Part shown: positions 7,566-47,845 of the stretch, in pieces
Layout: the number at the start of each line of letters is the position of its first letter
How positions within the stretch are numbered: position 1 is the stretch's first letter
Source of the DNA: Candidatus Binatia bacterium
GTDB taxonomy: Bacteria; Patescibacteriota; Patescibacteriia; SG8-24
Length of the DNA stretch: 64,000 nt
Assembly: GCA_035495855.1 (NCBI GenBank)
Contig: DATJFD010000076.1
Location: 7,185 to 71,184, forward strand
Direction: 5' to 3'
Position numbers and translations under genes: made by a program
The notes under the pieces: generated by a model
Seen by the model: only the letters and a program-made list of their open reading frames with translations
Database searches by the model: none
What the model was told of the DNA's origin: nothing

Positions 7566-7595
7566 AAGAGTGGCGGACGTTCCGCCACTCTTTTT
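7566..7595 (+). terminator. rho-independent terminator
   Basis: AAGAGTGGCGGA cgt TCCGCCACTCTT followed by TTT, directly after the stop of the TolB-like gene. It overlaps the track start (7570) of the next ORF, which argues for the later ATG at 7603. Confidence 0.7.
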
Positions 7596-7602
7596 CGGCC
7601 TT

Positions 7603-8292
7603 ATGCGCCATTCGAACGCCTTCCTCGGCGCCGCGATCCTCGCCGCGCTGCTCATCCTGGTCGTCTACGGCATCGCCGCGCTGTCGCCCGTCAATCCGGC
7701 GCCCAAGAGCGTGAACCAGATCGACCTGAGCGCCGCTCCGCTCGACAAGCCGACGGTCTCTTTCGGCAACCCTTCGCGGGGCCCGAAGGACGCCGCGGTG
7801 ACGGTATTCGTGTTCGGCGACTACGTCTGCCCGCCGTGCGCCGAATACGAGGCCACGACCTCCCAGCTCCTGACGGAGTTCCCGAAGGACGTCCGCATCG
7901 TCTGGAAGGACATGCCCAACACGCAGCTCCATCCCGAATCCATCAACGCCGCGGTGGCCGCGCGCTGCGCCGCGGACCAGGGGGCTTTCTGGCAGTATCA
8001 CGACCTTCTGTACCAGGAGCAGGCGTCCATCGGCCCCAAGAACTACACCCCCTTCGCGGCCCAGCTCGGCCTCGACCTCGAAGCCTTCCAGTCCTGTTAC
8101 GACTCCCGCCAGACGCAGCCGCTCGTGCAGCGGGATTACGACGAGGGGCAGCGGCTCCGCGTCGACAGCACGCCGTATACCTTCGTGAACGGCCGCAGGG
8201 TCGCCGGAGCCGTCAGTTACGAGCAGCTGCGCGGCTTCGTCGTCGCCGCGTTGAGCGAAGCGGGCATCCAGCCGGCCCAGGCGGCGCCATGA
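7603..8292 (+). CDS. DsbA-family thiol:disulfide oxidoreductase (membrane-anchored)
   Basis: Start re-picked at MRHSNAFLGAAILAALLILVV (a TM anchor). Thioredoxin-fold CPPC active site (FGDYVCPPCAEYE), then FWQYHD ... P.. and a conserved T-P (VDSTPYTFVNG) cis-Pro loop region. Confidence 0.75.
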   Translation: MRHSNAFLGAAILAALLILVVYGIAALSPVNPAPKSVNQIDLSAAPLDKPTVSFGNPSRGPKDAAVTVFVFGDYVCPPCAEYEATTSQLLTEFPKDVRIVWKDMPNTQLHPESINAAVAARCAADQGAFWQYHDLLYQEQASIGPKNYTPFAAQLGLDLEAFQSCYDSRQTQPLVQRDYDEGQRLRVDSTPYTFVNGRRVAGAVSYEQLRGFVVAALSEAGIQPAQAAP

Positions 8293-28402: not shown

Positions 28403-31108
28403 TTAACGGCGGCGTCCCCTGCGGCCGGCCATCAGCTTCTTCTCCATCGCCTCGCCCGCCTCCGCGAGCTTCCGGGCGGCCTCGGCCTGCTTCGCTTCAT
28501 TGCGGTCGGCCTGCGCGAAGACCTTGTTCCATTTCTCCGCGTCCTTCATCGCGCCCTTGTCGGCGTCGGCGCTGAGCAGCGCGCCCTTGGTCATAACCGC
28601 CTTGAGCTGATCGTTGTTGAGCATCATGCCGGGATTCGCCACCTGGATGGCCTCGAGAGCTTCCTTCGAATCGCTCATCGAACCGAGCTTCTTGGCGACA
28701 TCAAGGACCGCGGCCGCCTGATCGTTGTTCCCGCTTTCGACCATCTTGGTGATGTCCTGGAAGCTGAGGTTGTTGACCATGGAAAGCGCGACCTCGTTCA
28801 TGCCGCCGTTCTTCGTGATGGCGTCCGCGGGCACGGCGCCGGCGCCTTCGGCCTTCTTGTCCTGGATGAAGCTCTCGAACCTGCCGCGGCTCGCGCTGTC
28901 CGCGAAGTTGCCGTCGGCCTCATAGCCTTTGAACGCCTGGCCCATGCTGGCGCCGCCGGCGAGCGCGGTCGCCGCGCCCTGGGCCTCGGCGACGAGCGGC
29001 CGCAGGACGTTGGCGATGTTATCGGGCAGATGGCCGAGCGCGGTGGCGCTGATGCCCTGCGCCACTTTCTGGGCAAGGTCGGTGTTCTCGCGCAGTTTGT
29101 CGTAATCGAGCACGACCGAGACCTTGTCAGCAAGACCGGTCTTGCTGTCCGCGAGCGCGCCGCTGGCGGCCAGCGCGTCGAGCGCGGCGCCCGTCAGGTG
29201 CTCGGGGCGGACGTCGCCGCTCGCGCCGAGCGCTGCCAGCGCCTTCGGGTCCTTCATGCCAGTGATGAGATCGGCGCGCTCCTGCTCGGACAACAGCTTG
29301 AAGTTCTCCGGCCTGGCGCGAAGCCTGTCCTGGTTCTCCATGATCTCCTTTTCGGAGCCGCCCATCTTCTTGAGGGCGGTAAGCTGGTCGCCGCTCGCGG
29401 TCTCCTGCGCCTTGAGCACCGCTTTCGGGTTGGCGAAAGCCAGGAACTGTTCGCTGAGCTCCTTGGGGTCCATGTCCGCCATCCTGGCAGCGTTGAAGCC
29501 GCCGGCCGACTTCCGGAACGACTTCTCCTGCCGCTCACGCTCCTTCGCATCGGCCTCGTTGGGATCCATGATGAGGCTCGGGCGCTTGTTCTCGAAATCG
29601 CCGAGGTCCTTGAGGATGGCGGCGCCGCTGCCCGGTCTCTCCTTGTTGGCCTTGTCGGCGGTCTGCCGCAGGTCTTTGCGCCACTTGTTGAGGTCCTGGA
29701 CGTCCTTCGGATCGGTCGGCGGCTTGTTGGCGGCATCCTTCAGCATGTCGCGCTGCGCCTTCTGCTTCTGCGCCTTGCCCTGGTCGGTGATGGCGAAACT
29801 GTTGGCGACGCGCTTGGTCTGGCCGGGCGAAAGCGTCTCGGCGATGGCCGCGGCCCTGGATTCCTTCTGTTTCCTTTCCTGCGCCCTCGCGAGGCGCGCA
29901 TCGCCGGCGACGCGGCTCACGACCGGGATGCCCGCCGTGGCGAGCCGGCCGCCGGAAGCGCGGTCGACGCCGGAAATGGTCTTCTTCGCGGCCTTCTGGG
30001 CCAGGCTCAACCCCTTCTTGGCAAGTCCCGGCGCGGCGCCCGCGGACTCGGAGCTGATCTGCTTCGAGATCTGGAGGCCGCCCATGAGCAGGCAGATGGC
30101 GATGATGAAGGCCTCGATCTCGCTGCCTTCGAACGCCTGGCTGATGTCGCCGTTGACCTGTTCGGAACCCGCGCCCGTCTGCGCCGCCGGGAAGCCGTTG
30201 GAGAGGTTGTTGCTGGCGACGGAAACGAGAGACAGCCAGAGGAAGAAGGCCATCACGGGGCCGACGACCACCTGGCCGGTGAACATCTTCCACCACATGC
30301 CGTAGTAGCCGGAAGCCGAGCCGCCCGGGACCGCCTTGAGGAAGAACGCCAGCGGCGAAAGCACCACGAGCAGCCAGAGGTAGACGATGCGGATGGCGAG
30401 CGTGATGGTCATGAGGATGACGACCACGAGCGCGATGAGGGTCATGAAGAACGCCAGGATCATCGCGACCGCGATGGACCAGGCGCTGACGCCTCCCCCG
30501 CCGGCGTCGTCCGCGATGCGCGCCTGCATGAGCGAGGTGATGCGGAAGGCGTCGGCGAAGTTGCCGCCCGCCGCTTCCTTGAAGCCGTAGACGAAGGTGA
30601 GCATGACGACCTGCGCGAAGTCGATGAGCAGGCCGCAGATGGTGCGCGAAAAGTTCACGACGACCGCCATGATGAGCAGCCGCGAGAGCATCTTGTTCTT
30701 GTAGCTGTAGGCATCGACGCCGAGGATGGTGCCGAAGGCGATGACGAGCAGCACCAGGATGAAGAACATGTTCGTGACGTCGCGCACGATCGACCAGCCG
30801 TTGGCCACCGGCGCGGAGGTCACGAAGCCGTTGTACTGCGCCACCCAGATGAGCGCGGACACGACGATGAGCAGGAGCTGGCCGACCCAGCCGGTGAAGA
30901 TGTTGAAGATCCAGGCGATGCCGAGCGCGAAGATGTCGCCGATGCCGGCGTGCGCCGGCCTGGTGACGAGGAAAATGCCGCTCGCGACGATGAGCGCGAC
31001 GGCGGCCGCCATGGCGGCGTGGAGGGCGGCTTGGGACGTACGGCCGTCGATGACGGCAACGGCCGCGGCGGGACTGTGCCTGCGGCCCGAGGACGATGAG
31101 GACGGCAT
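28403..31108 (-). CDS. VirB6/TrbL-like polytopic membrane protein with long hydrophilic C-terminal domain
   Basis: Start re-picked at MPSSSSSGRRHS (ATG 31108). About 390 aa with at least 7 hydrophobic helices (IAWIFNIFTGWVGQLLLIVVSALIW, MFFILVLLVIAFGTILG, LLIMAVVVNFSRTICGLLIDFAQVVMLTFVYGF, and others), as in VirB6/TrbL/PrgH-type channel proteins. Then about 500 aa of Lys/Ala/Glu-rich hydrophilic sequence. The family call rests on architecture and context. Confidence 0.6.
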   Translation of the reverse strand: MPSSSSSGRRHSPAAAVAVIDGRTSQAALHAAMAAAVALIVASGIFLVTRPAHAGIGDIFALGIAWIFNIFTGWVGQLLLIVVSALIWVAQYNGFVTSAPVANGWSIVRDVTNMFFILVLLVIAFGTILGVDAYSYKNKMLSRLLIMAVVVNFSRTICGLLIDFAQVVMLTFVYGFKEAAGGNFADAFRITSLMQARIADDAGGGGVSAWSIAVAMILAFFMTLIALVVVILMTITLAIRIVYLWLLVVLSPLAFFLKAVPGGSASGYYGMWWKMFTGQVVVGPVMAFFLWLSLVSVASNNLSNGFPAAQTGAGSEQVNGDISQAFEGSEIEAFIIAICLLMGGLQISKQISSESAGAAPGLAKKGLSLAQKAAKKTISGVDRASGGRLATAGIPVVSRVAGDARLARAQERKQKESRAAAIAETLSPGQTKRVANSFAITDQGKAQKQKAQRDMLKDAANKPPTDPKDVQDLNKWRKDLRQTADKANKERPGSGAAILKDLGDFENKRPSLIMDPNEADAKERERQEKSFRKSAGGFNAARMADMDPKELSEQFLAFANPKAVLKAQETASGDQLTALKKMGGSEKEIMENQDRLRARPENFKLLSEQERADLITGMKDPKALAALGASGDVRPEHLTGAALDALAASGALADSKTGLADKVSVVLDYDKLRENTDLAQKVAQGISATALGHLPDNIANVLRPLVAEAQGAATALAGGASMGQAFKGYEADGNFADSASRGRFESFIQDKKAEGAGAVPADAITKNGGMNEVALSMVNNLSFQDITKMVESGNNDQAAAVLDVAKKLGSMSDSKEALEAIQVANPGMMLNNDQLKAVMTKGALLSADADKGAMKDAEKWNKVFAQADRNEAKQAEAARKLAEAGEAMEKKLMAGRRGRRR

Positions 31109-31302
31109 GTGCTCGGTCACGACATGGCGGAGTTCTTTTTTGGCAGGGTGTGTACAACTCCCTGCTGACTCCGTCTTCCGCCTTATGATACCACGAACGG
31201 CGCTGCCGACGAAGCGGCGGGGATAAGCCCGCGCGACCCATGAAAAATACCGCCTCTCCCTGGCTGGGAAAGGCGGTATTTTCGCTAGATCAAGCGGATT
31301 TT

Positions 31303-34300
31303 TTACGATCTCACCTTGACCGCCGCGCCCTCGGTCCAGGGCTGGAGCTTGCTCGGACCCTGGCGGATGTCGTAATGGGTGTCCTTGAGGTTCCAGCACT
31401 CGTTCCTATTGCCCGTGAACCCGTTCACGGTGCAGGTCGACCCGGCGCACGTGAGCGACGGCGTCGATGCGGCCGGCGTCAGGTTGATCGGGTCGCTCGC
31501 GCTGGTGATGCCGAGGCTGTTGAAGCAGAAGTCACCGCTCTCGCCCGACGCGCCGCCCGGACAGCTGCCGTTGCACATGCCCCAGTTGTCGAGGACCTGG
31601 ACGCGCGGTTTGAAGACGCAGTCGTCGCCGTCGCGGCAAGGGTACGGATGGCCGGGGTCCGTGCAGGCCGGCAGCGTGGCCAGCTTCTGCGGGTTGCACG
31701 TGTAGGTATGGCGGTCCGAGAAGTAGCGCGATTCGCAGGACTGCGGCGTCAGGCCGAACGGTACTGCCGTCTCGCCGCCGGGGATCGTGTTGCACTGCTG
31801 GTCCTCGGGCCCGCAGCCGGCCGGAGCGTTGTCCGTGCCGGTCGCCGGGCAGCCGCGGTGGTTCTTGTAGAAGCCGGGCGTCTCCAGGATGGACGTGCCA
31901 TCGCCGAAGTCGACGATGCGGCGCCTGATCGGCATGTGCTCGCGGTCCGCGAAGGCGTAGTACTTGATCGACGCGGTGACCCTGCCCTGGTAGTCCGTGC
32001 AGCCGCCGCAGTTCGGCAGGTCCACGGTGATGCCCTCGGCGCCCTCCTGACAGAGGCCGTCGGCCGCCTGCGAGCAGTTCCCCGTGGCGACGGTCAGGAT
32101 CTTCGGCGCGTTGCCGACGTTCATGTAGAGCAGGCGCTTGTCGTAGCCGGCGCCGTCGAGGTGATAGACCGGCGCGGTGAGCGAGAGGCCGGTCGGGCTC
32201 GTCGGATCGTAATTGAAGTGGACGAAGCTCTTCACGAACATCCTGCTGAGGAGCGTATAGCCGTCATCGCGCGTCTTGCCGGACATGCCGGCCATGTCGC
32301 ACTGGCCGAGGCAGGCGTAGGGATAACCCGCGGCCGTCCTTTGTGCGTTCGCGTTATACGTTCCCGAATCAGGGTCCTGCGGATGGGCGACGTCGGGCAG
32401 ATGCGGGTCCGCGGCGACGTGCGACCAGCAGTCAGAACCTTCTCCCATCGGAGGATCGTACGGCGAGTTCACGCCGGTCGCGGTCGGATAGCCGCAGAAC
32501 GTCCAGAGCTGCAACCCCTCGCGCCGGAGGACGGTGAACGGACTGCCGCCTTCGGACTTGAACACGGGGAGAGGCCAGCGCACGTCCAGGGTCGTCTGTC
32601 CGTTGTAATTCACCGCGCCGAGGGACGGCGTGACGGGACCGAAGGGCTTGAGGTCGGCGGGATTTGCGTTCGGCCTCGTCGTGTGGTGGTTGTATTCGAA
32701 CGCGGCGGGGAGGCCGACGGCGCCGGCGTTGCCGTTCTGCGCCTTCCACAGGCGATCGGTCCAGGCGATGTTCTGCACCGGATTCGAGGCGTTGTGCGTC
32801 TGCACGACGTCCGTGCAGGCCTCGCGGAGCATGGCGTAGGAGCTCGCGGAGATGTGGTGGCTGAACGTCGATTCGTTATGGCAGAGCACGGTCCTGATCT
32901 TGTCGAGATTGTGGTTCGAGTCGAACACCGCCTCGACGCCGATGCAGTTGTGCATGCCGTCGTCGCCGCCGCGGTCCTCGATGCTCTCGCATTCGTCCTC
33001 GTTGTCGACGCCGCCGCTGAGAATGTGCGCGCACGGGCTGGTGCTGTCGCCATAGTCGCCGATGGCCATGTCCCCTACGCGCTGGTTCCTGCCCGGACCG
33101 GCGGCCGTGCCGAGGCTGCTGTTGTCGTCGAACTCGAAGGTGGACTTCCAATGGCCCGGGTAGAGGTACAGGCGGCCATTGACGCCGCCGTTGGATTCGT
33201 CGGGGAACTGGATCCTGACGGCGACGAGATCGTTCTCCTTGATCCCCTGTCCTCGCATCGTGCAATCCTCCATGACCGTCGCGTCCTGCCAGCTGGTGTC
33301 GAAGTACGAGCCGGCAAGCGTGCAATCGTTGCCGCCCGGCAGCGCCCTGCTGTGGCAGGTCGCGAGGCCGTCGCACCAGCCTGCGATGCCCGAGTAGCAG
33401 AGACCCGCGCCGGCAGCCGCGCCCGCGAACCCTCCGAAGATGCCGCCGAGGATGATGGCCGCGGTGCAATTGTCGTCCGCCGCCTTGAAGGCCGCGCGGT
33501 CGCAAGCGCCGTAGTTGGCGGGCACCTGCGTCTTGTTGTTGAAGTCCGTGTTCCAGGAGCCGTCGCCGGTCATGGTCGCGTTCGGCTGTGCCGGCGGGTT
33601 GTCGGCGTTCGTGAACGCGACGCCGTCGTCGGTCGCGACCTTGTCGACGCACTTCCCGCCGACCACCGCGCACGCGTCGGTGTTCGAAGTGCTCATGTCG
33701 CTGAAGCCGGCGCTGGAGTTGTTCTTGAGCCCCGTGCAGGTGGCCAGGCTCCTGCCGGCGCACTGGTTGTCCGTGACGCAGATGGAATACGGCTGCGACT
33801 TGCCGCCCGATTCCAGATGCAGCGGGAATTCGTAGGTGCCGCTGTGCTTGGCGCCTTCAGCCGCGGCGCAGTAGAGCAGCGACTGCTGGTCGGTGGTGAA
33901 GCCGGCCTCGACGAACTGGTTGAAGTTGTCGGGCGAGCCCGCGAGCTGGTCGACCGGCAGCCAGACGTTGCAATTGAACTGGTCCGGCCTGCCGTTCACG
34001 AGGATCGACTTGTCGGGGTCCATGCAGAAGCCGGACCAGCCGTTCACGTGCGTGAGCTTGGTGAGCTTCTGGCAGGTGCCCGCGTCGGTGGCGTCGTCGG
34101 GGTTCGTGCAGTCCTTGTTCGGCTTGTTCTCGGGATGGCCGATGGCGCGGCAGGGCTTGCCGTCGAGCGAGCCGCCCTGGCAGACGCCGACGTTCGGGTC
34201 GATGTCCGTGTTGGTGGTCCAGGGCTTGATCATCTGGCCGCTCTCCAGGCCGTAGAAGTGGGAGACGCCGGTCTTGCCGTAATCGTAGCGCTGGTAGTTG

Positions 34301-37300
34301 CATTCGCAGTCGTTGTTGAGCGAGCAGACGTTCGATCCGCTGAACTGGGCCTTCTTGTTCAGCGCCTGGCCGTTCGTGCAGTCGAACCCGCGGCAGTTCC
34401 CCGTCCTCTCAAGGACGGATTCCGCGTAAGGAGAGTCTTCCTCCGGATAGGCGCGGCACTGCGCCTGGTTGATGGCATCGGCCGGGTTCAGTATGCCGCC
34501 GCCGTACGGGTAGAAGCACTTGTGCTCGAGGCAGGTGCCGTTGGCGGCCTGGCCGGTCTTGGAACACTGGTTCGTGGCGATGCACTTGGCGATGCGGTTG
34601 GTGGCCGTGCGGCAATTATCGTCGTTGCCGACCGTGCAGGTCCCGCCGCCGCCAGGAGGCGTGCTGGGGCTCTCGTCGCCCGTGCAATCGGTGTCGTCCT
34701 TGCAGACGTAGCCGGGGTCGAGCAGGATGGCGTACCGCGTGGTGGCGAAGAAGCTCTTGGCGCAATAACCGACGCCGCAATCGGAGTTCGCGTCGCACGA
34801 CGTGCCGAGACGGTCGCCGAGGCAGACGCCGGTGTACATCTTGCAATAGTCGGTCGGGGCTCCGCCGCCGGTGGTGCACTTGAGGCTGTCCACGCACTCG
34901 CCGCGCGCGGTCGCCGTGCCGCCCGTGTTCACGCAGCGTCCCTTGACGATGCTGAACGGCGAGAGGTACTGGGCCGGGTAGCGGCCCGGGATCGAGTAAC
35001 CCGAGTACTCGAGGCCCGAGAAGGTCACGTCGCGGGCGGTGTAGTCCCTGTCCGTCAGCACCGTCTTCGGCGGATCGAAGGTATGCGCGCACTCGAAGGC
35101 GCTGGCCGTCTGGCCGCGGATCTCGTCGCAGAGGCTGAAGGCCGAGCAGACCGGCTTGATCTTGTTCTGCTGCTCGTCATAGACCGTGTCGTAGCTCGTG
35201 CAGGTGTACCACTGCGCGCACTCGCGGTCCGGCCGCACCTTGATGATGACGTTCGCGTCGTTCTTGGTGATGCCGGCCTCGGACTTGAGGATGTGGATGT
35301 TCTGCGTGGCCGGGTTCGGCGTGCAGGTCTCGCCGCCGGGGCAGTCACCGTTCACGTCGCAGAACTTCGAGGTCGTGATGGAACAATGCGACACGCCGGC
35401 GCACTGCTCGCCGATGGCCTTGTTGCAATCCTTGTTGGGATTGGCCGTGTCCGACGTGGAACAGCCGTTGCCGTAGCGCTTGCGGCCGGTGCAATAGTTG
35501 GTCGCTCCCGGGCAGCCGAGCTCGGGGTCCTCGGTGTCCTGCTTGCAGAACTTCTCGGGCGTGGCTGAACAGACGCCTTCGGGGATGCTGAAGCAGCGCT
35601 GTTCGCAATACGGGCTGCGCGGATCGCTGTCGCAGTTGACCGGCGGCACGAAGCCGCTCGAGGCCTCGGTCACGCTGCGCAGATAGGACGAAGCGGCGGA
35701 GTAGAGGTTCTGGGTCTTGCTGGTCTGCTTGAAGAGCACGCAGCCCTGCTTGAGGCTCGCTTTGCCGGAGCAGGTCTTGAGGTCCAGCTTCGTGTTCACG
35801 ATGTAGTAGTACGGTTCCCCGGCGGGATGCGCGTTGCTGGTCGAGACCGGATCGACGAACTCCTCGCAGCGGTCGTACTTGGCCTCGCAGACGCCGACCC
35901 AGCCCTGGTAGCCGCAAGTCGTGTTGTCCTTGTACACCTTGCAGGCCGGCACCGGATCGGGCGCGACGAAGCACTGGCAGCCGTCGGCCTTGCAGCGTCC
36001 GGCGTCGATGATCTTGCAGGAGGACGAGCCGTTCGGAATGACGCAGGTCGAGCCGTTGCTGGTGCAGCCGCAACCGGCCGGGTTGGAGCAGAACGAGCCG
36101 GAGCAGGTCGTGGTGATGTTCGGCAGCGTGCAGACGCGGTCCGCGTTCTTGTACAGCGCGTAGTAGTCGCCCGACTGGAGCAGTTCCGGATAGCACGGGA
36201 AGAGCGCGCCGGTCGAGCTGCGGCGGAAGAAGCCGGAGACCGTCTGGCCGTTCACGATGGCGTTGTCCTTATACTCGCAGACCTTGTCGACGGGGTCCCT
36301 GAAGTAGTACGTGCCGTCGGAAGCGGTGTACTCCTCGCAGTTCAGCGTCTTCGACGTGCAGAGCGTCTGCTCGTACTTGGACGGGTCGTCCTTGATGGCG
36401 ATGGCGTTCCATTTGTCGATCACGCCGAGTTCGAACGAGACCTTGCAGCCTTTCTCGCCGTTCGCAACGGGGCAGGTGCCGCCATTGACCGGGCCGCAGA
36501 CGCAGCCGGTGGCGCTGTTGCAGACGCCGTTGACGACCGTGCCCGAAACGGTGAACCCGGGACCGAGATCGCACTGGCCTTCGAAGCCGTAGTGCGGAAG
36601 GCCCATGGCGCGGCAGCCGACCTGGTCGGCGGTGCACTGACCCGCCGAGTTGTCGACGAGGTACACACGGCGGTCAGCCTCGATATTGGCGCGGTCGGGA
36701 TTCTCGTCGGGGCGGGTCGAATCGTCCCAGGCGTCATACTTGAAGCGGCAATCGGTCTCGCCGACCGCGACGCGGCAGACGTCGGCCAGCATCTGGGGAG
36801 CCGTGGACATCGCGGCGGGATGGCGGACGTCGTAGTTGCAGACGCAGGCGGTGCCGGCATCGGCCGCGACGGGGATGTCGCAGGTCGTGCCGTTGTTCGG
36901 GATGAGGCAGGAGCCCTCCGGCTTGGTGCAGGAGCAACCGCCGCCCACGGTGCAGTGGTCCCCCGGGCCCGTGTAATTACAGGCGACGGACCCGCACTTG
37001 CGCGGCGTGACGCCGTCCGTCTCGTACAGGCGGCAGACCGCGTTGAAAGACTCCTCGAAGGGGTTCTGCGGCGTGTTCTGCTGGGCCGAGAAGGCGCGGC
37101 AGCCGACGGCCTTATCGCGGCACAGATTGGTGAACGACCGCAGATAGGCTTTCTCGTTCTTGCTGGTGGTGTATTCCCTGCAGCCGAGCATCTCCTGGGG
37201 CGAAGCGATGCCGTCCGCGGTCTGATCGCAGGAGGCCGGCGTCGTCCACGAATCGCGGACCACATAGACGCTGTCCTGGACCGCCTTGAGATCGACGTTG

Positions 37301-40300
37301 TCGACGAAGACATCGGACGTGCCGACGGCCTCGAAGTTGAGCTTCACCGAGGTCTGGCCCCACGGGGTCTGGCCGGGCGTGGGATTGCAGGCCGCCCCGC
37401 CGCCGCACTCGAGGTTCGTGGCGCAGGCCCTGGTGGCGTCATTGCTGCACCGTCCGGATTCGATGATGACCGGACCGAGCGTGTACTGCTTCCATTCCGA
37501 CGAGAGGGTGATCTTCGGAGCGGTGGTGCGCGGCGGCACGGAAGCTTCGTCGTCGTCGGCGAAGTTCGAGCTTCGCGGCGGAGCGGACGTGGCGGTCGTG
37601 AACGAGCAGGTGCCGTCGGGGCAGTTCGAACCGGTCGTGCAGGCCAGGCCGTTGTTGGCGCCGCCCTTGCAGGTGCCCGGCGAGACGCCCGGCACGCCTG
37701 AGGCGGCCGAAATGGTGCAGGAGGTCGCGACGCCGTTGTTCGGGACCATGCAGGTCAGGCCGGTGCTCGTCGAGCAGGGGCAGCCTTCGGTCGAGGCCAC
37801 GGGGCAAGCCGTATCGATGTTGCAGGTGATCGTCGCGCCGCCGTCGCGGAAGCCGACGTTCAGCGAGCCGGTGCCGCGCGCCCAGAAGGTGAGGATATAG
37901 GCGCTTCTCGGCTGGACCAGGCCGCCGATCTCGCGGCGCGCCAGACGCGTGCCGCCCGTGCCGATCTTCATGGAATGCCCGCCGACGGTGACGGATTCGC
38001 CGGACTGGGTGAGGACCCCGAGGGTCACGTCGCCGCTGCCCTTCCAATTGCCCGGCCAATCCTCGAAATCGTCATGGAGCAGCGACTGGACGTTGGTGGA
38101 AGCGTTGCCTTTGTACGCGCGGCAGCCGTTCTGTTCCTTCGGGCATACGTTGCTCGCGCCGGCGTCGGCGAAGTAGACGCACTGACCCTTCGCGGAATCC
38201 CAGCGGCCGTTGGATTTCTCGCAGTCCGCCTGCGTCGAGGTGGTGATGCGGTACTGAACGCAGGACGAGGACGCGATGATGGTCTTCGACAGCTGGCGGT
38301 AATGGCGGTTGCCGAGCGCATCGTAGAACTCGCGGCAATCGAAGTCGCCTCCGTCGATGGCCGAGCGGTTGCAGTAGCCCGCCGTATCGGAAGAGCCGTT
38401 GCCGATGGCCTGGCTCGCGCAGGCGGTCGCCTGGGCGTTCAGCCTGGTGCACGGCGCGGGACCCGCGTTCGCGCAGCCGGCATCCGCGCAGATGTCGTTC
38501 GCAAGGCCGGCGGTGATGTCGGCGGGCGAGCCGTTCACGACCGGAGCGGCCGTCGTGTTGGTGGTGTCGGTGGTGTTCTTGAGGTTCCAGACGAGCAGCT
38601 GGTAGCCGGTCGTGTCGGAGCCCTCCCAGCTATAGTAGACGCCCTTGGTCGCGTCATCAGGCTTGATGCAAAGACGGAGATGCGAGTAATACTCGACCTT
38701 CTCGGTCTCGAGGTTGGTGAACTCCGAGCATCCGACCTCGTTCTCCGTGCAGGAGGTCGCGGTCGTCGGGATGAAATAGACCGGGAACTTCACGGTGTCG
38801 AAGTCGGACTCTTCCTGTTTGAAGACGTCATACCCGGCGCATTCCTGCGGGCAGCGGTCCTGCGGGCCGGCGATGCCGGGAACCGTGGCGTCGCCGTTCG
38901 TGGGCGTGTAGGCGTCGCAGCCGACCTCGTTCTCGCGGCACACGCCGGCGAACGCGTTGCATTCCGGCCGGTCGCCCTCATCGCCGGTGCAGCCCAGGAA
39001 ATCCGGCGGGACCTTGATGGACGCGGTTTCGCTCGTGTTCGCGCCTCCGTAGGCGGAATGGTAGGAGGATCCGCCGCCTTCCTCGAACTGGACCGCGTCG
39101 GCGTAGACGGTGCCGCTCGTGGTGTAGAGCCAGAGGGTCGCGTGCGAAACGTCCTTGTTGTCGATGACGAACGTGCAGGAAGCGCGCAGGCCCTTCTCGG
39201 TCGCGGCCTTGGTGCCGGACGCGCGCATGTTGATCTCGCCGGAGGCCGCGCCGCCGGAAGTGCCGTCGACGGTGGCGGCGCAGTTCACCGTGGGCGTGGT
39301 CCCTTCCGCCTCGCCCGAGTAGCCGGTCGTGGTGACGACGTCGTCCTGCGCGAGCGTGACGGTCGCGCCGTTCGCGTCCCGGAAGGTCAGGCCGATGCCG
39401 CCGCTGACGTCGTTGCCCGAGTCAGGGATGAAGGTGGCGGAAACGGTGTAGGTGGTCTTCCTTCTCACGGGCAGGCCCTGCTGCGCCACGTTCTCCGTGA
39501 CCGAGCACTTCTGCTGTCCCTTGATGACCTTGCAGGTGTCGTTCAGGACGTTGCCGGCCGTGCCGTACGTGCAGGGGCAGCCGAGATCGGCGATGCAGGT
39601 GCCGGCATTGATGGTGGCGTTCGTGACGAGCGGCAGCGTGCAGGCCGCGACGGTGCCCAGCGTGCCCGGCGGATTGAAACCCGTCGCCAGGACCGGAAGG
39701 CGCATGGCGTTCGCGCCATCCACGGCCTTGCTCCCGTCCTTGCTCAGGAAACCCTTGTTGGCGGACGGAACCTCGCCGAACGGGGTCCAGCTGGTCGCGT
39801 GATCGGGCGTGCCGTCGTTGTCCCCGTCCTCGACGTCCTCGAAGCTCGGGTTGCGGACGAGGTTGAGGGCGTCGCCCGCGTCCAGCCGCACGAGCGAGGA
39901 ACAGCCGTTGCTCGTGGCGCTGCAGGTCTGGGCGTTCTTGTTGAAGAATCGCGACGGGTCGATCTGCCAGTCATCGCCCTCGGCCTTGGCGCCGGTGAGC
40001 GACGAGCAGGAGCGCTGGCCCTTCTCGACCTCGCAGGTCAGGCCGGCGGTGCAGGAGCAGGAAGCGGTGTTGCACGGGTAGGGCTGGCGGCAGACGGCGC
40101 CGTTGGGCGCGGTGCACGACGTGTTGTTCTTCGTGATGGTGCAGGATCCCGTGTTGAACGCCGTGCCCGAGTTCGGCGGGACCGTGCAGGTGCAGGACTT
40201 GATCGGGTCCGAAGCGTCGACGGGATGCGTACAGACCGACGAAAGACTGCAGGTCACGGTGCTCAAATTGAGCGCGTACTGGCGGCAGCCGGCGTTGTCG

Positions 40301-42090
40301 GCGTTGCAGACGCCGTGGTCGATGGTGTTGAGGACGTAGTTCTTGATCTCGCCGGTGCGGGCCTTGAGCGTGCGGCACGTGTTGTAGGCAGCAGGGCAGG
40401 AATCGCCGTTGAAGCGCCAGACGTTCCGCTCGCGCGCGCAGTAGCCCCAGCCGCCGGTGCAGTTGCCGTTGTCGTCCTGCTTGAGGCAGGTCTGCGGATC
40501 CACGCACTGCTCGGCGCGGCTCGCGATCTCGCTCGACAGCGGGACGGGACCGAAGGCCATCGCGCGGCATTGCGTCGGCGGGATCTTCAGCACCCAGTCG
40601 GGGTCGATGAGATGGCACCACGGGTGGGCGGCGTCGATGGTCCCCTGGTCGTTGCAGTTATTGAAGCCGGCCATCACCTCGCGGAGCTTGGTGTTGGGAC
40701 CGGCCTTGCGCGCGGCGATCTCCCAGCCGATCGGCAGGATGCGGGCCGCGCGGAGCTTCTTGATGTTGCTCTCGCAGTACGCGTAGGTATAGCAGAAAGG
40801 ATCCTGGTCCTTGACCGGATCGGAGGACGCCACGAACGGCCAGTCGCCGTGGAGCATGTTCTTGTCGACGGCCTCCCTGACGGTCACCGGCGTGACGTCG
40901 GCCACGCGGACGGCGTTCGCGAACTGCTGATCGATGACGCAATTGTTCGGGCCGCGCTCCGCGCCGGGACAGACGCTGAACTCGAGCAGGGGGTCGATGA
41001 TGCCGGTATCCTTCGGCTGCGCGGCGGTGAACCGCGGCGCCAAGGCTTCGGTCGCGCCGGTGGTCCCCGGCGGCTGCAGCAGGCCTTCGGGGTTCAGGAT
41101 GAGGTCCGGCTGGAGGGCGATGAGCTCCTCCGTCGACATGAGGCCGTTGATGAGCTTGTTGAGCAGGCGCGAAATGAGGGTCATCGCGAACGTCTGCACG
41201 GCGTTCACGACGATGGAGATGACCGCCTTGGAGGCGATCTGGCCGGCGGCGTAGGAAGCCGAATACTGCTGCGGGTTGTCCTGCTGCATCTTCTTCATGC
41301 GCTGGAACTCGTCGTGCGTCACCGACGACGGCGCCTTGGCGCGGCCCGAAACGGGATCACGGACGTCGGAGAACCCGCCGCCCGCGGAAGCGTCCATGAT
41401 GCGTTTCATGACGTCGGCCCTCTTGGCCTCTTCCTTCACTTCATAGAGGCCGCTCTGCGCGCCGAGCGCGACCGACAGCGGGGCTTGTCCCCTCTCGAAG
41501 GTCGGCTTGAGGCCCTTGAGCACCTCGCCGCTCGTGACCGAATCCTTGAAGTTCGACCAGTTGCTCGCGACCGCGTTGAAGTCGCACTTCGGCGGCGGCG
41601 GCTTGATCTCGTCGAGGGCGCCCAGCTGGATCTTGAGGGAGAACTTGATGCCCGGGTTGCAAAGGTCGAAACCGAGCTTGGTGAAACCGCCTTGCGTGGA
41701 AAGGGTGCCGATGGCCTCGCCGATGGCGCCCTGCCATGCCTGCTTGAAGCCGTCTTCGAACGCCTTGCTGTTCCAGCAGACGACCTGGCCGGGGCAGTCG
41801 GACGTGAGGGCGACGGCCGCGGTGTAGGCGAGCTGCGAGGTGAAATAGTTGACGCCGTTGACGACGGCGGTGACGGCCGCCTCGACGAACGCGTCCTTGA
41901 TGGTGGTCCAGACGTTGGTGGTCGTGGTCTGGACGCTGGTGATGGGGTCGGTGTATTGCGCGTTGGCCTGGCGGGGCGACCCGAAGAGGAGGGTCGACGA
42001 GGCCAGGAAGAAGCCGAACAGGAAAAGCAGGAACGTCGCCATCGCCTTCCTCCCCGAGCGTCCGGGGTCCTTGCTGTAGAAAATCCCCAT
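31303..42090 (-). CDS. giant (3595 aa) secreted or surface Cys-rich protein with CBM-like and PKD-like domains
   Basis: Single uninterrupted ORF. Signal or anchor segment MATFLLFLFGFFLASSTLLFGSPRQANA. Very high Cys content with recurring Cys motifs. Two NPSFED/DDFEDW-type jelly-roll (CBM4/9-like) regions (nt about 39079-39861 and 37276-38082). A DFGDGT PKD-like box near the C-terminus (nt about 31711-31983). Confidence 0.85.
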   Translation of the reverse strand: MGIFYSKDPGRSGRKAMATFLLFLFGFFLASSTLLFGSPRQANAQYTDPITSVQTTTTNVWTTIKDAFVEAAVTAVVNGVNYFTSQLAYTAAVALTSDCPGQVVCWNSKAFEDGFKQAWQGAIGEAIGTLSTQGGFTKLGFDLCNPGIKFSLKIQLGALDEIKPPPPKCDFNAVASNWSNFKDSVTSGEVLKGLKPTFERGQAPLSVALGAQSGLYEVKEEAKRADVMKRIMDASAGGGFSDVRDPVSGRAKAPSSVTHDEFQRMKKMQQDNPQQYSASYAAGQIASKAVISIVVNAVQTFAMTLISRLLNKLINGLMSTEELIALQPDLILNPEGLLQPPGTTGATEALAPRFTAAQPKDTGIIDPLLEFSVCPGAERGPNNCVIDQQFANAVRVADVTPVTVREAVDKNMLHGDWPFVASSDPVKDQDPFCYTYAYCESNIKKLRAARILPIGWEIAARKAGPNTKLREVMAGFNNCNDQGTIDAAHPWCHLIDPDWVLKIPPTQCRAMAFGPVPLSSEIASRAEQCVDPQTCLKQDDNGNCTGGWGYCARERNVWRFNGDSCPAAYNTCRTLKARTGEIKNYVLNTIDHGVCNADNAGCRQYALNLSTVTCSLSSVCTHPVDASDPIKSCTCTVPPNSGTAFNTGSCTITKNNTSCTAPNGAVCRQPYPCNTASCSCTAGLTCEVEKGQRSCSSLTGAKAEGDDWQIDPSRFFNKNAQTCSATSNGCSSLVRLDAGDALNLVRNPSFEDVEDGDNDGTPDHATSWTPFGEVPSANKGFLSKDGSKAVDGANAMRLPVLATGFNPPGTLGTVAACTLPLVTNATINAGTCIADLGCPCTYGTAGNVLNDTCKVIKGQQKCSVTENVAQQGLPVRRKTTYTVSATFIPDSGNDVSGGIGLTFRDANGATVTLAQDDVVTTTGYSGEAEGTTPTVNCAATVDGTSGGAASGEINMRASGTKAATEKGLRASCTFVIDNKDVSHATLWLYTTSGTVYADAVQFEEGGGSSYHSAYGGANTSETASIKVPPDFLGCTGDEGDRPECNAFAGVCRENEVGCDAYTPTNGDATVPGIAGPQDRCPQECAGYDVFKQEESDFDTVKFPVYFIPTTATSCTENEVGCSEFTNLETEKVEYYSHLRLCIKPDDATKGVYYSWEGSDTTGYQLLVWNLKNTTDTTNTTAAPVVNGSPADITAGLANDICADAGCANAGPAPCTRLNAQATACASQAIGNGSSDTAGYCNRSAIDGGDFDCREFYDALGNRHYRQLSKTIIASSSCVQYRITTSTQADCEKSNGRWDSAKGQCVYFADAGASNVCPKEQNGCRAYKGNASTNVQSLLHDDFEDWPGNWKGSGDVTLGVLTQSGESVTVGGHSMKIGTGGTRLARREIGGLVQPRSAYILTFWARGTGSLNVGFRDGGATITCNIDTACPVASTEGCPCSTSTGLTCMVPNNGVATSCTISAASGVPGVSPGTCKGGANNGLACTTGSNCPDGTCSFTTATSAPPRSSNFADDDEASVPPRTTAPKITLSSEWKQYTLGPVIIESGRCSNDATRACATNLECGGGAACNPTPGQTPWGQTSVKLNFEAVGTSDVFVDNVDLKAVQDSVYVVRDSWTTPASCDQTADGIASPQEMLGCREYTTSKNEKAYLRSFTNLCRDKAVGCRAFSAQQNTPQNPFEESFNAVCRLYETDGVTPRKCGSVACNYTGPGDHCTVGGGCSCTKPEGSCLIPNNGTTCDIPVAADAGTACVCNYDVRHPAAMSTAPQMLADVCRVAVGETDCRFKYDAWDDSTRPDENPDRANIEADRRVYLVDNSAGQCTADQVGCRAMGLPHYGFEGQCDLGPGFTVSGTVVNGVCNSATGCVCGPVNGGTCPVANGEKGCKVSFELGVIDKWNAIAIKDDPSKYEQTLCTSKTLNCEEYTASDGTYYFRDPVDKVCEYKDNAIVNGQTVSGFFRRSSTGALFPCYPELLQSGDYYALYKNADRVCTLPNITTTCSGSFCSNPAGCGCTSNGSTCVIPNGSSSCKIIDAGRCKADGCQCFVAPDPVPACKVYKDNTTCGYQGWVGVCEAKYDRCEEFVDPVSTSNAHPAGEPYYYIVNTKLDLKTCSGKASLKQGCVLFKQTSKTQNLYSAASSYLRSVTEASSGFVPPVNCDSDPRSPYCEQRCFSIPEGVCSATPEKFCKQDTEDPELGCPGATNYCTGRKRYGNGCSTSDTANPNKDCNKAIGEQCAGVSHCSITTSKFCDVNGDCPGGETCTPNPATQNIHILKSEAGITKNDANVIIKVRPDRECAQWYTCTSYDTVYDEQQNKIKPVCSAFSLCDEIRGQTASAFECAHTFDPPKTVLTDRDYTARDVTFSGLEYSGYSIPGRYPAQYLSPFSIVKGRCVNTGGTATARGECVDSLKCTTGGGAPTDYCKMYTGVCLGDRLGTSCDANSDCGVGYCAKSFFATTRYAILLDPGYVCKDDTDCTGDESPSTPPGGGGTCTVGNDDNCRTATNRIAKCIATNQCSKTGQAANGTCLEHKCFYPYGGGILNPADAINQAQCRAYPEEDSPYAESVLERTGNCRGFDCTNGQALNKKAQFSGSNVCSLNNDCECNYQRYDYGKTGVSHFYGLESGQMIKPWTTNTDIDPNVGVCQGGSLDGKPCRAIGHPENKPNKDCTNPDDATDAGTCQKLTKLTHVNGWSGFCMDPDKSILVNGRPDQFNCNVWLPVDQLAGSPDNFNQFVEAGFTTDQQSLLYCAAAEGAKHSGTYEFPLHLESGGKSQPYSICVTDNQCAGRSLATCTGLKNNSSAGFSDMSTSNTDACAVVGGKCVDKVATDDGVAFTNADNPPAQPNATMTGDGSWNTDFNNKTQVPANYGACDRAAFKAADDNCTAAIILGGIFGGFAGAAAGAGLCYSGIAGWCDGLATCHSRALPGGNDCTLAGSYFDTSWQDATVMEDCTMRGQGIKENDLVAVRIQFPDESNGGVNGRLYLYPGHWKSTFEFDDNSSLGTAAGPGRNQRVGDMAIGDYGDSTSPCAHILSGGVDNEDECESIEDRGGDDGMHNCIGVEAVFDSNHNLDKIRTVLCHNESTFSHHISASSYAMLREACTDVVQTHNASNPVQNIAWTDRLWKAQNGNAGAVGLPAAFEYNHHTTRPNANPADLKPFGPVTPSLGAVNYNGQTTLDVRWPLPVFKSEGGSPFTVLRREGLQLWTFCGYPTATGVNSPYDPPMGEGSDCWSHVAADPHLPDVAHPQDPDSGTYNANAQRTAAGYPYACLGQCDMAGMSGKTRDDGYTLLSRMFVKSFVHFNYDPTSPTGLSLTAPVYHLDGAGYDKRLLYMNVGNAPKILTVATGNCSQAADGLCQEGAEGITVDLPNCGGCTDYQGRVTASIKYYAFADREHMPIRRRIVDFGDGTSILETPGFYKNHRGCPATGTDNAPAGCGPEDQQCNTIPGGETAVPFGLTPQSCESRYFSDRHTYTCNPQKLATLPACTDPGHPYPCRDGDDCVFKPRVQVLDNWGMCNGSCPGGASGESGDFCFNSLGITSASDPINLTPAASTPSLTCAGSTCTVNGFTGNRNECWNLKDTHYDIRQGPSKLQPWTEGAAVKVRS

Positions 42091-42116: not shown

Positions 42117-42926
42117 CTACGGCGCGTTGACGTTCGTTCCTCCGGCCGGCGCATTCGTGTTGGTCGCGGGTTCGTTGGTGTTCACATCCGGCACGGCGAT
42201 CTCCGACAGCGTGTCGGTGACCAGCTTGCGGAGGGTCGCGTCATCGGCTTTCTGGAGCGCCTGCGCCGGTATGCCCAGCTTGCCCAGGAAGATCCGGAGA
42301 TCGGCCGCCGACATCGTTTCCAATCCGTCCTTGATCTTCTGCGGCGTCAGCGTGGCGACGGGCCCGAAGGTCTCTTCGATGACCGCCATGACCTTGGCCT
42401 CGGCGTCGCTGCTCGTCCCCGTCGTCGGCGCGCCTGCCGCGCCCGTGGCCGGGTTCGAGCTTCCGGTGTTCCCTCCTCCGGTCGTGCCGCCGGTCTCCTG
42501 CTGGGCTGCCGCGAAGATCTTGGCTTGCCGGCAGGTTCGTCCTTTCGGGCAGTTCGGGTCCGTCTCGGCGGCGACCTCGGCGCCGTCGTTGATGCCGTCC
42601 GAGTCCGAATCCTCGAGGAAGGGGCTCGTGCGGAAGACGTAGAGCTCGTCGTAATCAGTCAGGCCGTCGCCGTCCGTGTCCTGCGTGCGCAATTTCTGCG
42701 TCCTCTCCTTCTCGATCTGGTCCGCGGTCTTGAACGTGAACTGCGTGTTGCGCTTGAACGGCAGCACGATCGCTTTGTTCAAGCGAAACAGACCCAGGAC
42801 GATCGTCGAAAGACCAATAACGATAAAAACCCCGAGACTCAACTTCTGATGTGAAGAAAGGGAATCCCAGTTGGTCACATGGTTCGTCGACAGTATAACA
42901 TGCGCGTTCTTCGAGCGTCCACGCAC
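42117..42926 (-). CDS. membrane-anchored protein with thrombospondin-type-3-like Ca-binding repeats
   Basis: GTG start at 42926; the start is uncertain. TM helix LSLGVFIVIGLSTIVLGLF. DTDGDGLTDYDE and DSDSDGINDGAE (D.D.DG..D..E) motifs at nt about 42576-42680. Gly/Thr-rich linker and a helical C-terminus. Confidence 0.55.
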   Translation of the reverse strand: MRGRSKNAHVILSTNHVTNWDSLSSHQKLSLGVFIVIGLSTIVLGLFRLNKAIVLPFKRNTQFTFKTADQIEKERTQKLRTQDTDGDGLTDYDELYVFRTSPFLEDSDSDGINDGAEVAAETDPNCPKGRTCRQAKIFAAAQQETGGTTGGGNTGSSNPATGAAGAPTTGTSSDAEAKVMAVIEETFGPVATLTPQKIKDGLETMSAADLRIFLGKLGIPAQALQKADDATLRKLVTDTLSEIAVPDVNTNEPATNTNAPAGGTNVNAP

Positions 42927-44995: not shown

Positions 44996-45007
44996 GGGAA
45001 GAGCGTC

Positions 45008-45086
45008 GAGTCGAAAGTCCAAAGTCCAAAGTCGAAAGTTCCGCACGCTTGCGCTCTCGACTTTCGACTATCGACTCTCGACTTTC
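45008..45086. repeat. heptamer-periodic inverted repeat (AGTCGAA/AGTCCAA word family)
   Basis: Left arm GAGTCGAA AGTCCAA AGTCCAA AGTCGAA AGT. Right arm CTCTCGACTTTCGACTATCGACTCTCGACTTTC. The right arm overlaps the last codons and stop of tsaC (45068). Confidence 0.7.
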
Positions 45087-45685: not shown

Positions 45686-45690
45686 GCTTT

Positions 45691-45762
45691 TCGAGTCGAA
45701 AGTCCAGAGTCGAGAGCGCACAGATCCACCCTCTCGACTTTCAACTCTCGACTCTCGACTTC
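45691..45762. repeat. heptamer-periodic inverted repeat (AGTCGAA/AGTCGAG word family)
   Basis: Left arm TCGAGTCGAAAGTCCAGAGTCGAGAG. Right arm CTCTCGACTTTCAACTCTCGACTCTCGACTTC. Lies between the epimerase stop and the tsaC start. Confidence 0.7.
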
Positions 45763-45768
45763 AAGTCT

Positions 45769-46698
<930 letters not shown>

Positions 46699-46709
46699 GC
46701 GGGTGCGGG

Positions 46710-47820: not shown

Positions 47821-47845
47821 ATGCGTCGAGCTTCGAGCTCCGAGG

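Follow-up and report, generated by a model that had tools for sequence, protein, structure and literature searches.

What does a member of the Patescibacteria, a group that accounts for much of the diversity of uncultured bacteria and appears to live attached to other microbes, do with a single protein of 3595 amino acids (aa)? The question is raised by a stretch of 64,000 nucleotides from Candidatus Binatia bacterium (GTDB lineage Patescibacteriota, Patescibacteriia, SG8-24; assembly GCA_035495855.1, contig DATJFD010000076.1, positions 7,185 to 71,184 of the forward strand), referred to here as the window, in which one giant gene lies beside genes of a type IV secretion system (T4SS). To our knowledge, it is not known how most Patescibacteria recognise and hold their hosts. 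By the reading preferred here, to which a probability of about one half is given, the giant gene encodes a Sec-exported, disulfide-stapled surface adhesin or fibre that binds a host microbe, and it is the orthologue in this genome of a family found in the Uhrbacteria/Falkowbacteria/SG8_24 group.

31303..42090, minus strand: giant open reading frame (ORF), ATG start, 3595 aa plus stop codon

The mature giant protein has a mass of ~376 kDa and a pI of 4.9. The G+C contents of the three codon positions of its gene, GC1/GC2/GC3, are 0.55/0.52/0.91, and GC3 stays between 0.87 and 0.93 across all 300-codon blocks. A preliminary description of this DNA had proposed a single uninterrupted ORF of 3595 aa with a signal-type N-terminus. 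The uniform GC3 and the colinear one-ORF orthologues (44 complete) bear out the first of these points, and the Sec signal read in the sequence, whose layout recurs in homologues, bears out the second.

41959..42090, minus strand: Sec-type signal peptide, aa 1-44, read from the sequence, cleavage predicted between ANA and QY

The signal peptide is built of a basic n-region, a 22-residue hydrophobic core and a signal-peptidase-I site at ANA/QY, and the homologues repeat both the n-h-c layout and the pattern A-x-A followed by Q at their N-termini. A Gly/Ala-rich hydrophobic stretch at aa 2874-2900 (AAIILGGIFGGFAGAAAGAGLCYSGIAG; window ~33391-33471, minus strand) resembles a transmembrane helix or a glycine zipper. 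It was considered as a membrane anchor and rejected, as it is not conserved (column occupancy ~0.4) and most homologues are without the region. Beyond aa 2892 the giant protein contains no hydrophobic window.

The most unusual feature of the giant protein is its content of cysteine. It contains 206 Cys, an even number, or 5.7% of its residues, compared with 0.75% in 41 other predicted proteins of the window. The count is also even in 101 of 122 full-length family representatives (binomial p ~1e-13; median length 2,996 aa, mean Cys content 4.2%) and in 37 of the 44 complete ORFs from the locus set described below, and these even counts suggest full extracellular pairing into disulfides. Moreover, 97 of the 206 Cys are kept in at least 80% of homologues, although overall identity is only ~35%. 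About 100 disulfides would thus be formed outside the cell, and a candidate catalyst, plausible by its type, is encoded in the window.

7567..8289, plus strand: DsbA-like exported thioredoxin-fold protein (PF13462, E 4e-25; PF01323, E 2e-15)

No VKOR/DsbB partner was seen adjoining this gene. A 407-aa ORF upstream of it has no Pfam match and looks by eye like a secreted repeat- or propeller-type protein.

The Cys are not spread evenly along the chain. The head (about aa 45-370) holds four Cys, as expected from the Cys-poor head of ~330 aa first described, and the longest Cys-free gap (205 aa) follows C169. The recurrence of Cys every few to about 20 residues over the rest of the chain holds roughly, except for Cys-free runs of 75-107 aa within two jelly-roll modules (see below) and in aa 2943-3340. 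All eight quoted copies of the motif C-x5-6-(G/N)C-x-x-(Y/F) were found, at aa 595, 1051, 1114, 1316, 1657, 1819, 1911 and 2068. Composition-preserving shuffles predict 0.5 copies and reached eight in none of 2000 trials, and all 16 Cys of the eight motifs are invariant across the 44 full-length homologues.

A second Cys pattern, absent from the preliminary description, consists of seven mini-modules of the form C-x4-7-C-x-C-x5-12-C-x7-10-C, starting at aa 673, 832, 1429, 1713, 1857, 2001 and 2033, compared with 2.1 expected by chance (p=0.006). Their columns are occupied in 2-26% of homologues, and two of the seven sit in jelly-roll loops.

40006..40074, minus strand: Cys mini-module, aa 673-695 (CNTASCSCTAGLTCEVEKGQRSC), occupancy 0.15, lineage-specific insertion
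39505..39597, minus strand: Cys mini-module, aa 832-862, inside jelly roll 1, occupancy 0.14
37717..37806, minus strand: Cys mini-module, aa 1429-1458, inside jelly roll 2, occupancy 0.17
36880..36954, minus strand: Cys mini-module, aa 1713-1737, occupancy 0.10
36445..36522, minus strand: Cys mini-module, aa 1857-1882, occupancy 0.26
35914..36090, minus strand: two adjoining Cys mini-modules, aa 2001-2025 and 2033-2059, occupancy 0.02 and 0.21

These lineage-specific insertions account for the greater length and Cys content of the giant protein relative to the family median.

Candidate binding parts of the giant protein are two jelly-roll modules, which had been recognised by eye as CBM4_9-like segments (CBM, carbohydrate-binding module).

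39076..39870, minus strand: jelly roll 1 (CBM4_9-like), aa 741-1005, from PF02018 matches of orthologues, AlphaFold2 (AF2) model and Foldseek
37285..38085, minus strand: jelly roll 2 (CBM4_9-like), aa 1336-1602, from a weak PF02018 match of its own, orthologues and Foldseek

Matches to PF02018 at E<0.01 were obtained for the orthologous segments of module 1 in 24 of 45 cases (best E 1e-10) and of module 2 in 31 of 45 (best E 2.9e-9). AF2 models were built for the head (13 sequences) and for aa 505-1704, with a 27-sequence alignment used as structure-prediction input. The mean predicted local distance difference test score (pLDDT) of aa 505-1704 is 67, with block values mostly of 74-93 in module 1 and of 65-86 in module 2 outside a large lineage-specific Cys-rich insertion (aa ~1425-1575). 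Foldseek matched the modelled jelly rolls to CBM16, CBM22, CBM4-2 and CBM61 structures at probability 1.0, with template-modelling (TM) scores on the target of 0.5-0.67, about 0.65 for CBM16, CBM22 and CBM4, including the tandem CBM22-1/CBM22-2 entry 4xup. The same entry was found in PDB profile searches at E 0.0019, in which the CBM-bearing tile was the only one to match anything (weakly, CBM22 and CBM16). The two modules are also homologous to each other at the profile level (hhalign probability 95.6%, E 1e-8). On their predicted fold and the profile matches of their orthologues, the jelly rolls probably belong to the CBM4/9/16/22 superfamily, in agreement with the segments first seen by eye. 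By analogy with that superfamily, they may bind host glycans. The description of a giant surface protein with lectin-like parts is therefore supported by the signal peptide, the even Cys count, the DsbA-like gene and the jelly rolls together.

Apart from these modules, ~80% of the giant protein matches no Pfam, NCBIfam or PDB entry. The chain can still be divided by conservation and model quality, beginning with a head and a family-defining core.

40987..41958, minus strand: Cys-poor head, aa 45-368, predicted long helices at low confidence
40255..40986, minus strand: family-defining core, aa 369-612, near-invariant motifs followed by a Cys ladder ending in CNADNAGCRQY

Between close relatives, conservation is highest in the head, with 92-98% identity over aa 101-400 to the relative P0016, compared with 74% for the whole protein. 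Across the family, the maximum of mean column identity (49-54%) is reached in aa 401-600. The core carries the motifs KLRxARIxPIGWE(I/L)AA and HLIDP(D/N)WVLKxP..C, and its invariant residues include E457 (in GWEIAA), D387, R447, R450 and K445. Within the head model, aa ~369-505 is the only part predicted with some confidence (block-mean pLDDT 65-88). Searches of Pfam, NCBIfam and the PDB, the last by both sequence and fold, returned no match for the core. Two ideas about this end of the protein were dropped: that the core is a lysozyme- or SLT-like substitute for VirB1, which was without structural or profile support, and that the head shares an origin with the window's VirB2-like pilins, for which hhalign gave a probability of 0.2%.

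38101..39033, minus strand: conserved beta blocks with Cys staples, aa 1020-1330; the C-x6-C hairpins at aa 1051, 1114 and 1316 are invariant
33841..37284, minus strand: conserved middle body, aa 1603-2750, with the other five of the invariant C-x6-C hairpins
32071..33840, minus strand: variable distal region, aa 2751-3340, column identity 9-23%, occupancy 0.33-0.69
31306..32070, minus strand: conserved C-terminal domain, aa 3341-3595, PKD-like by motif only

Between the jelly rolls, aa 1020-1330 has a column identity of 38-53% in most blocks (21-32% in aa 1151-1250) and an AF2 block pLDDT mostly of 62-90 with dips to 37-54, and no known family was found for it in Pfam or PDB profile searches. 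The middle body includes conserved blocks such as CRAYPExDSPF and GWxGxCLxxDxS..ING...C.TWLPVD, and a profile of aa 1600-2760 has no PDB relative; nor has a profile of the distal region (aa 2750-3345). The distal region is only 55-74% identical to P0016, the closest full-length relative (74% overall), over aa 2801-3300. The chain thus has a conserved base and a variable tip, and the gradient that is steep between these two close relatives is also present family-wide. Taken with the lineage-specific insertions in the CBM loops, it suggests that the tip diversifies as an interaction surface.

The C-terminal domain follows the family consensus FYAxAD..MPIR...VDWGDG...YKNHRG...HxYxC...CVFxPRVxVxDNWGxC...PW...G.I.V.P, as read from the family alignment. 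The giant protein has DFGDGT at aa ~3387 and reads VDFGDGT...HTYTC...PRVQVLDNWG where the family has VDWGDG. The PKD signature (WDFGDG, H-x-Y and a V-x-V-x-D-x-x-G strand) is present at the level of motifs, with loops much longer than those of PKD domains. No family, PKD (PF00801/PF18911) included, was assigned to aa 3300-3595 even at E<=10, PKD_4 matched one of 40 orthologous C-terminal segments (E 0.0034), and the C-terminal profile found nothing in the PDB. The DFGDGT box noted at the outset does exist, and membership in the PKD family, which it had suggested, was dropped, as the giant protein's own segment gave no match and one orthologue in 40 did. In other searches, the whole giant protein found nothing among PDB sequences by phmmer, self-BLAST detected no internal repeats at E<0.01, and 15 full-length members contained no Pfam family apart from CBMs.

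A homologue search in related metagenome bins had been proposed as a way to tell conserved from variable segments. It was carried out with three 1200-aa tiles and with a head profile (alignment A1, aa 30-620), and the alignment of the homologues places conserved segments in the core, the body and the C-terminal domain and a variable one at aa 2751-3340. The tile searches found relatives only in metagenome-assembled genomes (MAGs) of Patescibacteria/Parcubacteria. They include the fragment P0001, which is 77% identical to the giant protein, and the colinear partial relatives P0006 (aa 894-3516), P0005 (aa 1101-2796) and P0015 (aa 1260-3504). With one genome per GTDB species, the head profile detected relatives in at least 567 genomes. 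Among 1.84 billion cluster representatives, it matched 2,141 proteins at E<=1e-3, of which 1,159 remained with the limit set to E<=1e-30, and in the matches listed the head lies at residues ~50-620 of proteins mostly 2,500-3,860 aa long. A set of 80 loci was assembled, 44 of which contain complete single ORFs (2,756-3,818 aa) that align from aa ~64 to aa ~3520 of the giant protein. Identity is 74-77% to P0016 and P0001 and 30-52% to full-length members. The hallmarks of the family, all present in the giant gene and its locus, are KLRxARIxPxGWE(L/I)AA, HL(I/V)DP(D/N)W, the colinear Cys ladder and an upstream gene for a TSP3 protein.

The record titles of the relatives name Uhrbacteria, Falkowbacteria, Parcubacteria SG8_24 and 'Patescibacteria group'. 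Many others (L005, L008, L010 and L016 among them) are titled 'uncultured Gammaproteobacteria', evidently a placeholder from bulk-submitted MAGs, and a few short contigs lie in Acutalibacteraceae, Vicinamibacterales and Kapaibacterium bins, likely through placeholder names or binning contamination. In L060, L061 and L070, the giant gene appears as two overlapping ORFs, probably as a result of frameshifts or assembly errors. In the distant lineages L002/L003 and L004, on the other hand, there are truly separate 'A' and 'B' genes with small ORFs between them. The 'A' genes (~1680 aa) match the giant protein up to aa ~1680 (L002) or ~2326 (L004), and the 'B' genes (1057-1649 aa) match it from aa ~2280-2670 to 3520. 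The single ORF of 3 kaa may be a fusion, or the split forms may be secondary. Exact-sequence look-ups returned no record for the giant protein or for P0004, and no description of the family was found in a full-text literature search limited to the library consulted. Within the literature searched, the family appears to be undescribed and uncurated.

The neighbourhood of the giant gene bears on how the protein could be held and used. On the minus strand, the order is KsgA, the TSP3 protein, the giant gene, a VirB6/TrbL-like gene, two acidic paralogues, a PrgI/VirB3-like gene, a TrsD-like gene and VirB4, beyond which follow on the same strand a 205-aa protein with a single transmembrane segment, ComFC and, further on, RecG.

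42117..42926, minus strand: TSP3 partner, 269 aa, N-terminal transmembrane anchor and two bacterial TSP3 (Ca-binding) repeats (PF18884, E 7e-10)
28403..31399, minus strand: polytopic membrane protein of the VirB6/TrbL type, C-terminal tail long and charged, from homology to a protein of L004 and its transmembrane region
27074-28390 and 25685-27058, minus strand: acidic Cys-free paralogues of 438 and 457 aa, shared motif GG(L/M)xMSDADA(E/D)RVM
25205-25678, minus strand: T4SS core, PrgI/VirB3-like (PF12666, E 1e-8)
24433-25137, minus strand: T4SS core, TrsD-like, 234 aa, TraC_F_IV N-terminal part
22528-24426, minus strand: T4SS core, VirB4 ATPase (P-loop_TraG, E 3e-25)
21167-21940, minus strand: ComFC-like (phosphoribosyltransferase plus double zinc ribbon), just downstream of the T4SS cluster
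16206-18446, minus strand: RecG, downstream of the T4SS cluster
9464-10798 and 12313-14085, plus strand: VirB2-like pilin-domain proteins (445 and 590 aa), domain close to the N-terminus (PF18895, E ~8e-9)

As originally stated, the giant gene lies directly upstream of the VirB6-like gene. VirB4 follows five genes further downstream. The VirB6-like protein was identified through its transmembrane region, which aligns over 344 aa at 34% identity (E 8e-56) with a protein of L004, and this L004 protein in turn matches PF04610 TrbL (27.1 bits, cut-off 25.9); the protein in the window has no direct Pfam match. Its longest ORF overlaps the 3' end of the giant gene by 97 nt, and the first ~100-130 residues of that ORF are Arg/Ser-rich and not conserved. 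Judged from the sequence, translation probably begins further in, at a Met near 31111 or 31012.

The TrsD-like gene and VirB4 are in the same frame, with one stop codon and 6 nt between them. That VirB4 is split by an in-frame stop was rejected, because the upstream ORF is of the TrsD type, and TrsD is a separate gene common beside virB4 in Patescibacteria (doi 10.1101/2025.01.22.634366). The T4SS gene set of the window, with comF and recG close by, agrees with the one reported for Magasanikiibacteriota (doi 10.1101/2025.01.22.634366). The 438- and 457-aa proteins look like paralogous proteins of the T4SS cluster. The former gave a borderline TAF match (PF02969, 21.6 bits, cut-off 21 bits) that is probably spurious, and no other Pfam family was found in either. 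The two pilin-domain proteins, both with a long extension after the domain, are encoded on the opposite strand, 8-13 kb from VirB4; pilin arrays are a noted peculiarity of the Patescibacteria T4SS.

On the other side of the giant gene, the gene order is far more constant. In ~60 species-level genomes (loci L001-L082; window 42951-54940, minus strand), the order YidC, p348 (a 348-aa protein), Wzy, GroES, GroEL, RF, epimerase, (MFS), KsgA, TSP3, giant is conserved, and wherever a locus extends far enough, a TSP3 homologue adjoins the giant gene on its upstream side. Because this order is kept in ~60 loci, the giant gene can be regarded as a vertically inherited chromosomal core gene.

Taken together, these observations suggest how a host-binding surface protein might work. 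The signal peptide would carry the giant protein across the membrane, and an extracytoplasmic oxidoreductase, such as the DsbA-like protein of the window, would then make the ~100 disulfides, stiffening a long string of small beta modules. The giant protein may be kept on the cell surface: the helical head and the first Cys ladder would hold it on its own cell via the TSP3 membrane protein. A second docking point, in this lineage, may possibly be the VirB6-like subunit on its extracellular side. The jelly rolls and the fast-evolving C-terminal third would reach out and bind glycans or proteins on a host microbe, providing the contact needed by the epibiont and its T4SS. The binding of the partner protein, the binding of glycans and host, and a functional coupling to the T4SS are all proposed from sequence, models and gene order. 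In Saccharibacteria, both essential adhesins and an essential T4SS are known (PMC10633639), and a genetic study showed that one Saccharibacterium cannot grow as an epibiont without its T4SS (PMC10633639). Structural matches in BFVD to phage tail-fibre, tip-attachment and CenC-CBM proteins, together with those to reelin and EphA2, are consistent with a binding function as architectural analogies.

Several observations weigh against this proposal or parts of it. The C-terminus of the giant protein (...TEGAAVKVRS) has neither an LPXTG motif nor a transmembrane segment by which a surface protein could be anchored. The head model has a mean pLDDT of 46 (30-50 in the helical part), and Foldseek returned only noise for it (E>3) and no structural match, so that the docking role of the head is a guess. 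Jelly roll 1 of the giant protein itself does not match PF02018, and jelly roll 2 scores 14.6-17.7 bits (E 0.044 to 0.005), below the gathering score of 25.9. CBM4_9, CBM16 and CBM22 modules normally accompany glycoside hydrolases, and ~80% of the sequence is unassigned and could hold one. Finally, 44 loci include 1.5 kb or more of downstream flank, and in 29 of these, mostly of the Uhrbacteria type, a convergent small lipoprotein-like gene stands next to the giant gene in place of VirB6 and no T4SS gene follows within the flank covered, so that the link to the T4SS may reflect gene order and nothing more.

L025, 14551-15369, minus strand: convergent gene
L031, 19798-20424, minus strand: convergent gene
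L041, 19213-19929, minus strand: convergent gene
L055, 10255-10980, minus strand: convergent gene
L063, 19445-20263, minus strand: convergent gene

The product of the convergent gene has a hydrophobic stretch followed by a Cys at its N-terminus, and Asp-rich repeats.

The alternative that survives best, although it is unlikely, is that the giant protein is a dedicated extracellular component of the T4SS, replacing a pilus or an adhesin of the PrgB/PrgC type known from Gram-positive conjugation systems. It would then make up the bridge or conduit from cell to cell and be assembled on the VirB6-like subunit. The VirB6-like gene follows the giant gene immediately and in the same orientation, and no terminator-like site was found on the minus strand from its stop to the VirB6-like coding region. 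Adjacency to VirB6 recurs in 15 of the 44 loci, namely those of the window's clade and the divergent L002-L004, which include the most divergent, split-gene relatives L002 and L004. Moreover, no adhesin is known for the Patescibacteria T4SS, and a survey of these systems found no PrgB-type adhesin or homologue (doi 10.1101/2025.01.22.634366). Against this, the 10 kb upstream of the giant gene contain no T4SS gene in the 29 loci with the convergent gene, and synteny is kept with housekeeping genes (YidC to KsgA) and TSP3, not with T4SS genes. The giant protein also shows no homology to described T4SS families in Pfam or NCBIfam, and the window carries VirB2-like pilin-domain genes as well. The T4SS association is real in this genome and possibly ancestral, and it does not define the family. 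The proposal that the giant protein is the adhesin of the T4SS is thus plausible by position and weaker than first implied. A bolder version, in which the TSP3-anchor gene and the giant protein (~3,000-3,800 aa and ~50-100 disulfides across the family) form an undescribed host-contact organelle of a whole class of Patescibacteria, can be put forward only tentatively and is improbable as it stands. The organelle would be the missing extracellular arm, adhesin or conduit, of their monoderm-type T4SS, ancestrally encoded at the head of its operon as in the window, and would decide to which host cells the epibiont can attach and with which it can exchange material.

It is a more doubtful possibility that the giant protein is an extracellular enzyme, with a novel catalytic domain that acts on wall or capsule polysaccharides of the host and is targeted by the two CBMs. 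The usual pairing of such modules with glycoside hydrolases and the large unassigned part of the chain would fit, as would the invariant Glu, Asp, Arg and Lys residues of the core (E457, D387, R447, R450 and K445), and wall degradation has been proposed for the giant genes of predatory Omnitrophota (doi 10.1101/2023.11.21.568195). On the other hand, no hydrolase, lyase or peptidase family was found in the giant protein or in 15 full-length homologues, PDB profile searches of all tiles gave only CBMs, and the confident part of the head model had no lysozyme-like or other enzyme match.

A structural protein of the envelope, such as an S-layer-like coat or a wall-spanning scaffold without any role in host recognition, is a still poorer fit. 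It would account for a core gene in a fixed housekeeping neighbourhood in ~60 species, for the size and disulfide rigidity of the product and for its pairing with a Ca-binding TSP3 partner. S-layer proteins, in contrast, are usually Cys-poor and much smaller, and the base-to-tip gradient and the insertions in the CBM loops look like diversifying interaction surfaces. Delivery into the host as a T4SS-translocated effector or toxin, the other role first suggested besides that of adhesin, is very improbable. It draws on the proximity of VirB4 and VirB6 and on the existence of giant polymorphic toxins in other systems, whereas the conserved, cleavable Sec signal and the ~100 disulfides of an even and conserved Cys pattern, which imply oxidative folding outside the cytoplasm, disfavour, by established T4SS biology, a cytoplasmic substrate passed to VirB4 or VirD4. 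Furthermore, no toxin domain was found in Pfam or NCBIfam, and the gene, present in single copy and conserved, belongs to the core genome and does not look like a polymorphic cassette. Lastly, high-GC DNA yields many long spurious ORFs, and at a G+C content of 62-70% the window has several of >1000 aa opposite the giant gene on the other strand, but an artefact, whether an assembly chimera or a spurious ORF, is excluded by a GC3 of 0.91 against a GC2 of 0.52, even throughout the gene, and by dozens of colinear full-length orthologues of 30-77% identity with the Cys kept, so that the giant ORF is a real gene, intact and not chimeric.

The family is a strong candidate for host recognition and attachment in Patescibacteria. 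The giant gene is among the largest in these tiny genomes and is a core gene in at least 567 species-level genomes, and the disulfide density of its product is very unusual among bacterial proteins. Should the protein be a host-binding arm, its variable distal region could mark host range in metagenomes. It would also be worth building a curated profile of the family, such as a Pfam entry that covers the head.

Comparison with known systems may help to place the giant protein. Among the surface adhesins of Gram-positive (MPF-FATA) conjugative T4SS, it resembles PrgB (aggregation substance) and PrgC of pCF10, in that it is secreted, large and probably exposed on the surface, is encoded beside a T4SS of the monoderm type and is likely used in cell-cell contact. 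It differs from them in having no sequence or domain similarity and no LPXTG motif, in being three times larger and extremely Cys-rich, and in that the T4SS linkage of its family is missing in two thirds of loci. With the CBM4_9 superfamily (PF02018; CAZy CBM4, 9, 16, 22 and 61), the jelly rolls share the fold, an N-terminal N-x-S-F-E...W strand and a C-terminal Y-x-D-x-V-x-L strand, whereas the copies in the giant protein score below the gathering threshold, are without an identified catalytic partner and lie within a Cys-rich chain of 3.6 kaa, with disulfide mini-modules in their loops.

Similar architectures are also found outside bacteria, among extracellular proteins of eukaryotes and in phages. 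Foldseek lists the N-terminal region and R5-6 of reelin (E 9e-5 to 7e-4) and the ligand-binding and Cys-rich domains (LBD-CRD) of EphA2, in which jelly rolls likewise alternate with small disulfide-knotted modules; a global TM score of ~0.1 and the absence of sequence similarity indicate convergence, not membership. The many BFVD matches to phage proteins (E 1e-5 to 3e-8) recall phage receptor-binding proteins, in which beta-sandwich and CBM modules likewise form chains that are conserved at the proximal end and vary at the distal one. In contrast, the matches (TM score ~0.1) derive from generic beta and CBM modules, there are no phage genes at the giant locus, and the giant gene is a chromosomal core gene.

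The SPEARE proteins of Nanohaloarchaeota are giant proteins linked to the cell surface or to predation. The giant genes of Omnitrophota likewise encode very large secreted proteins beside a secretion apparatus, in an organism that probably depends on other cells (doi 10.1101/2023.11.21.568195). The giant protein is unrelated to both in sequence and domains and far smaller than the 30-85 kaa of the Omnitrophota proteins. Both the Omnitrophota and the SPEARE proteins carry recognisable enzymatic or adhesion domains, whereas Cys richness is specific to the family described here. On the best reading, then, the giant protein is a bacterial surface adhesin or fibre of a known kind with unusual traits, namely ~100 disulfides, a novel conserved head, a fixed TSP3 partner, the status of a class-wide core gene and, in some lineages, a place at the head of a T4SS operon.

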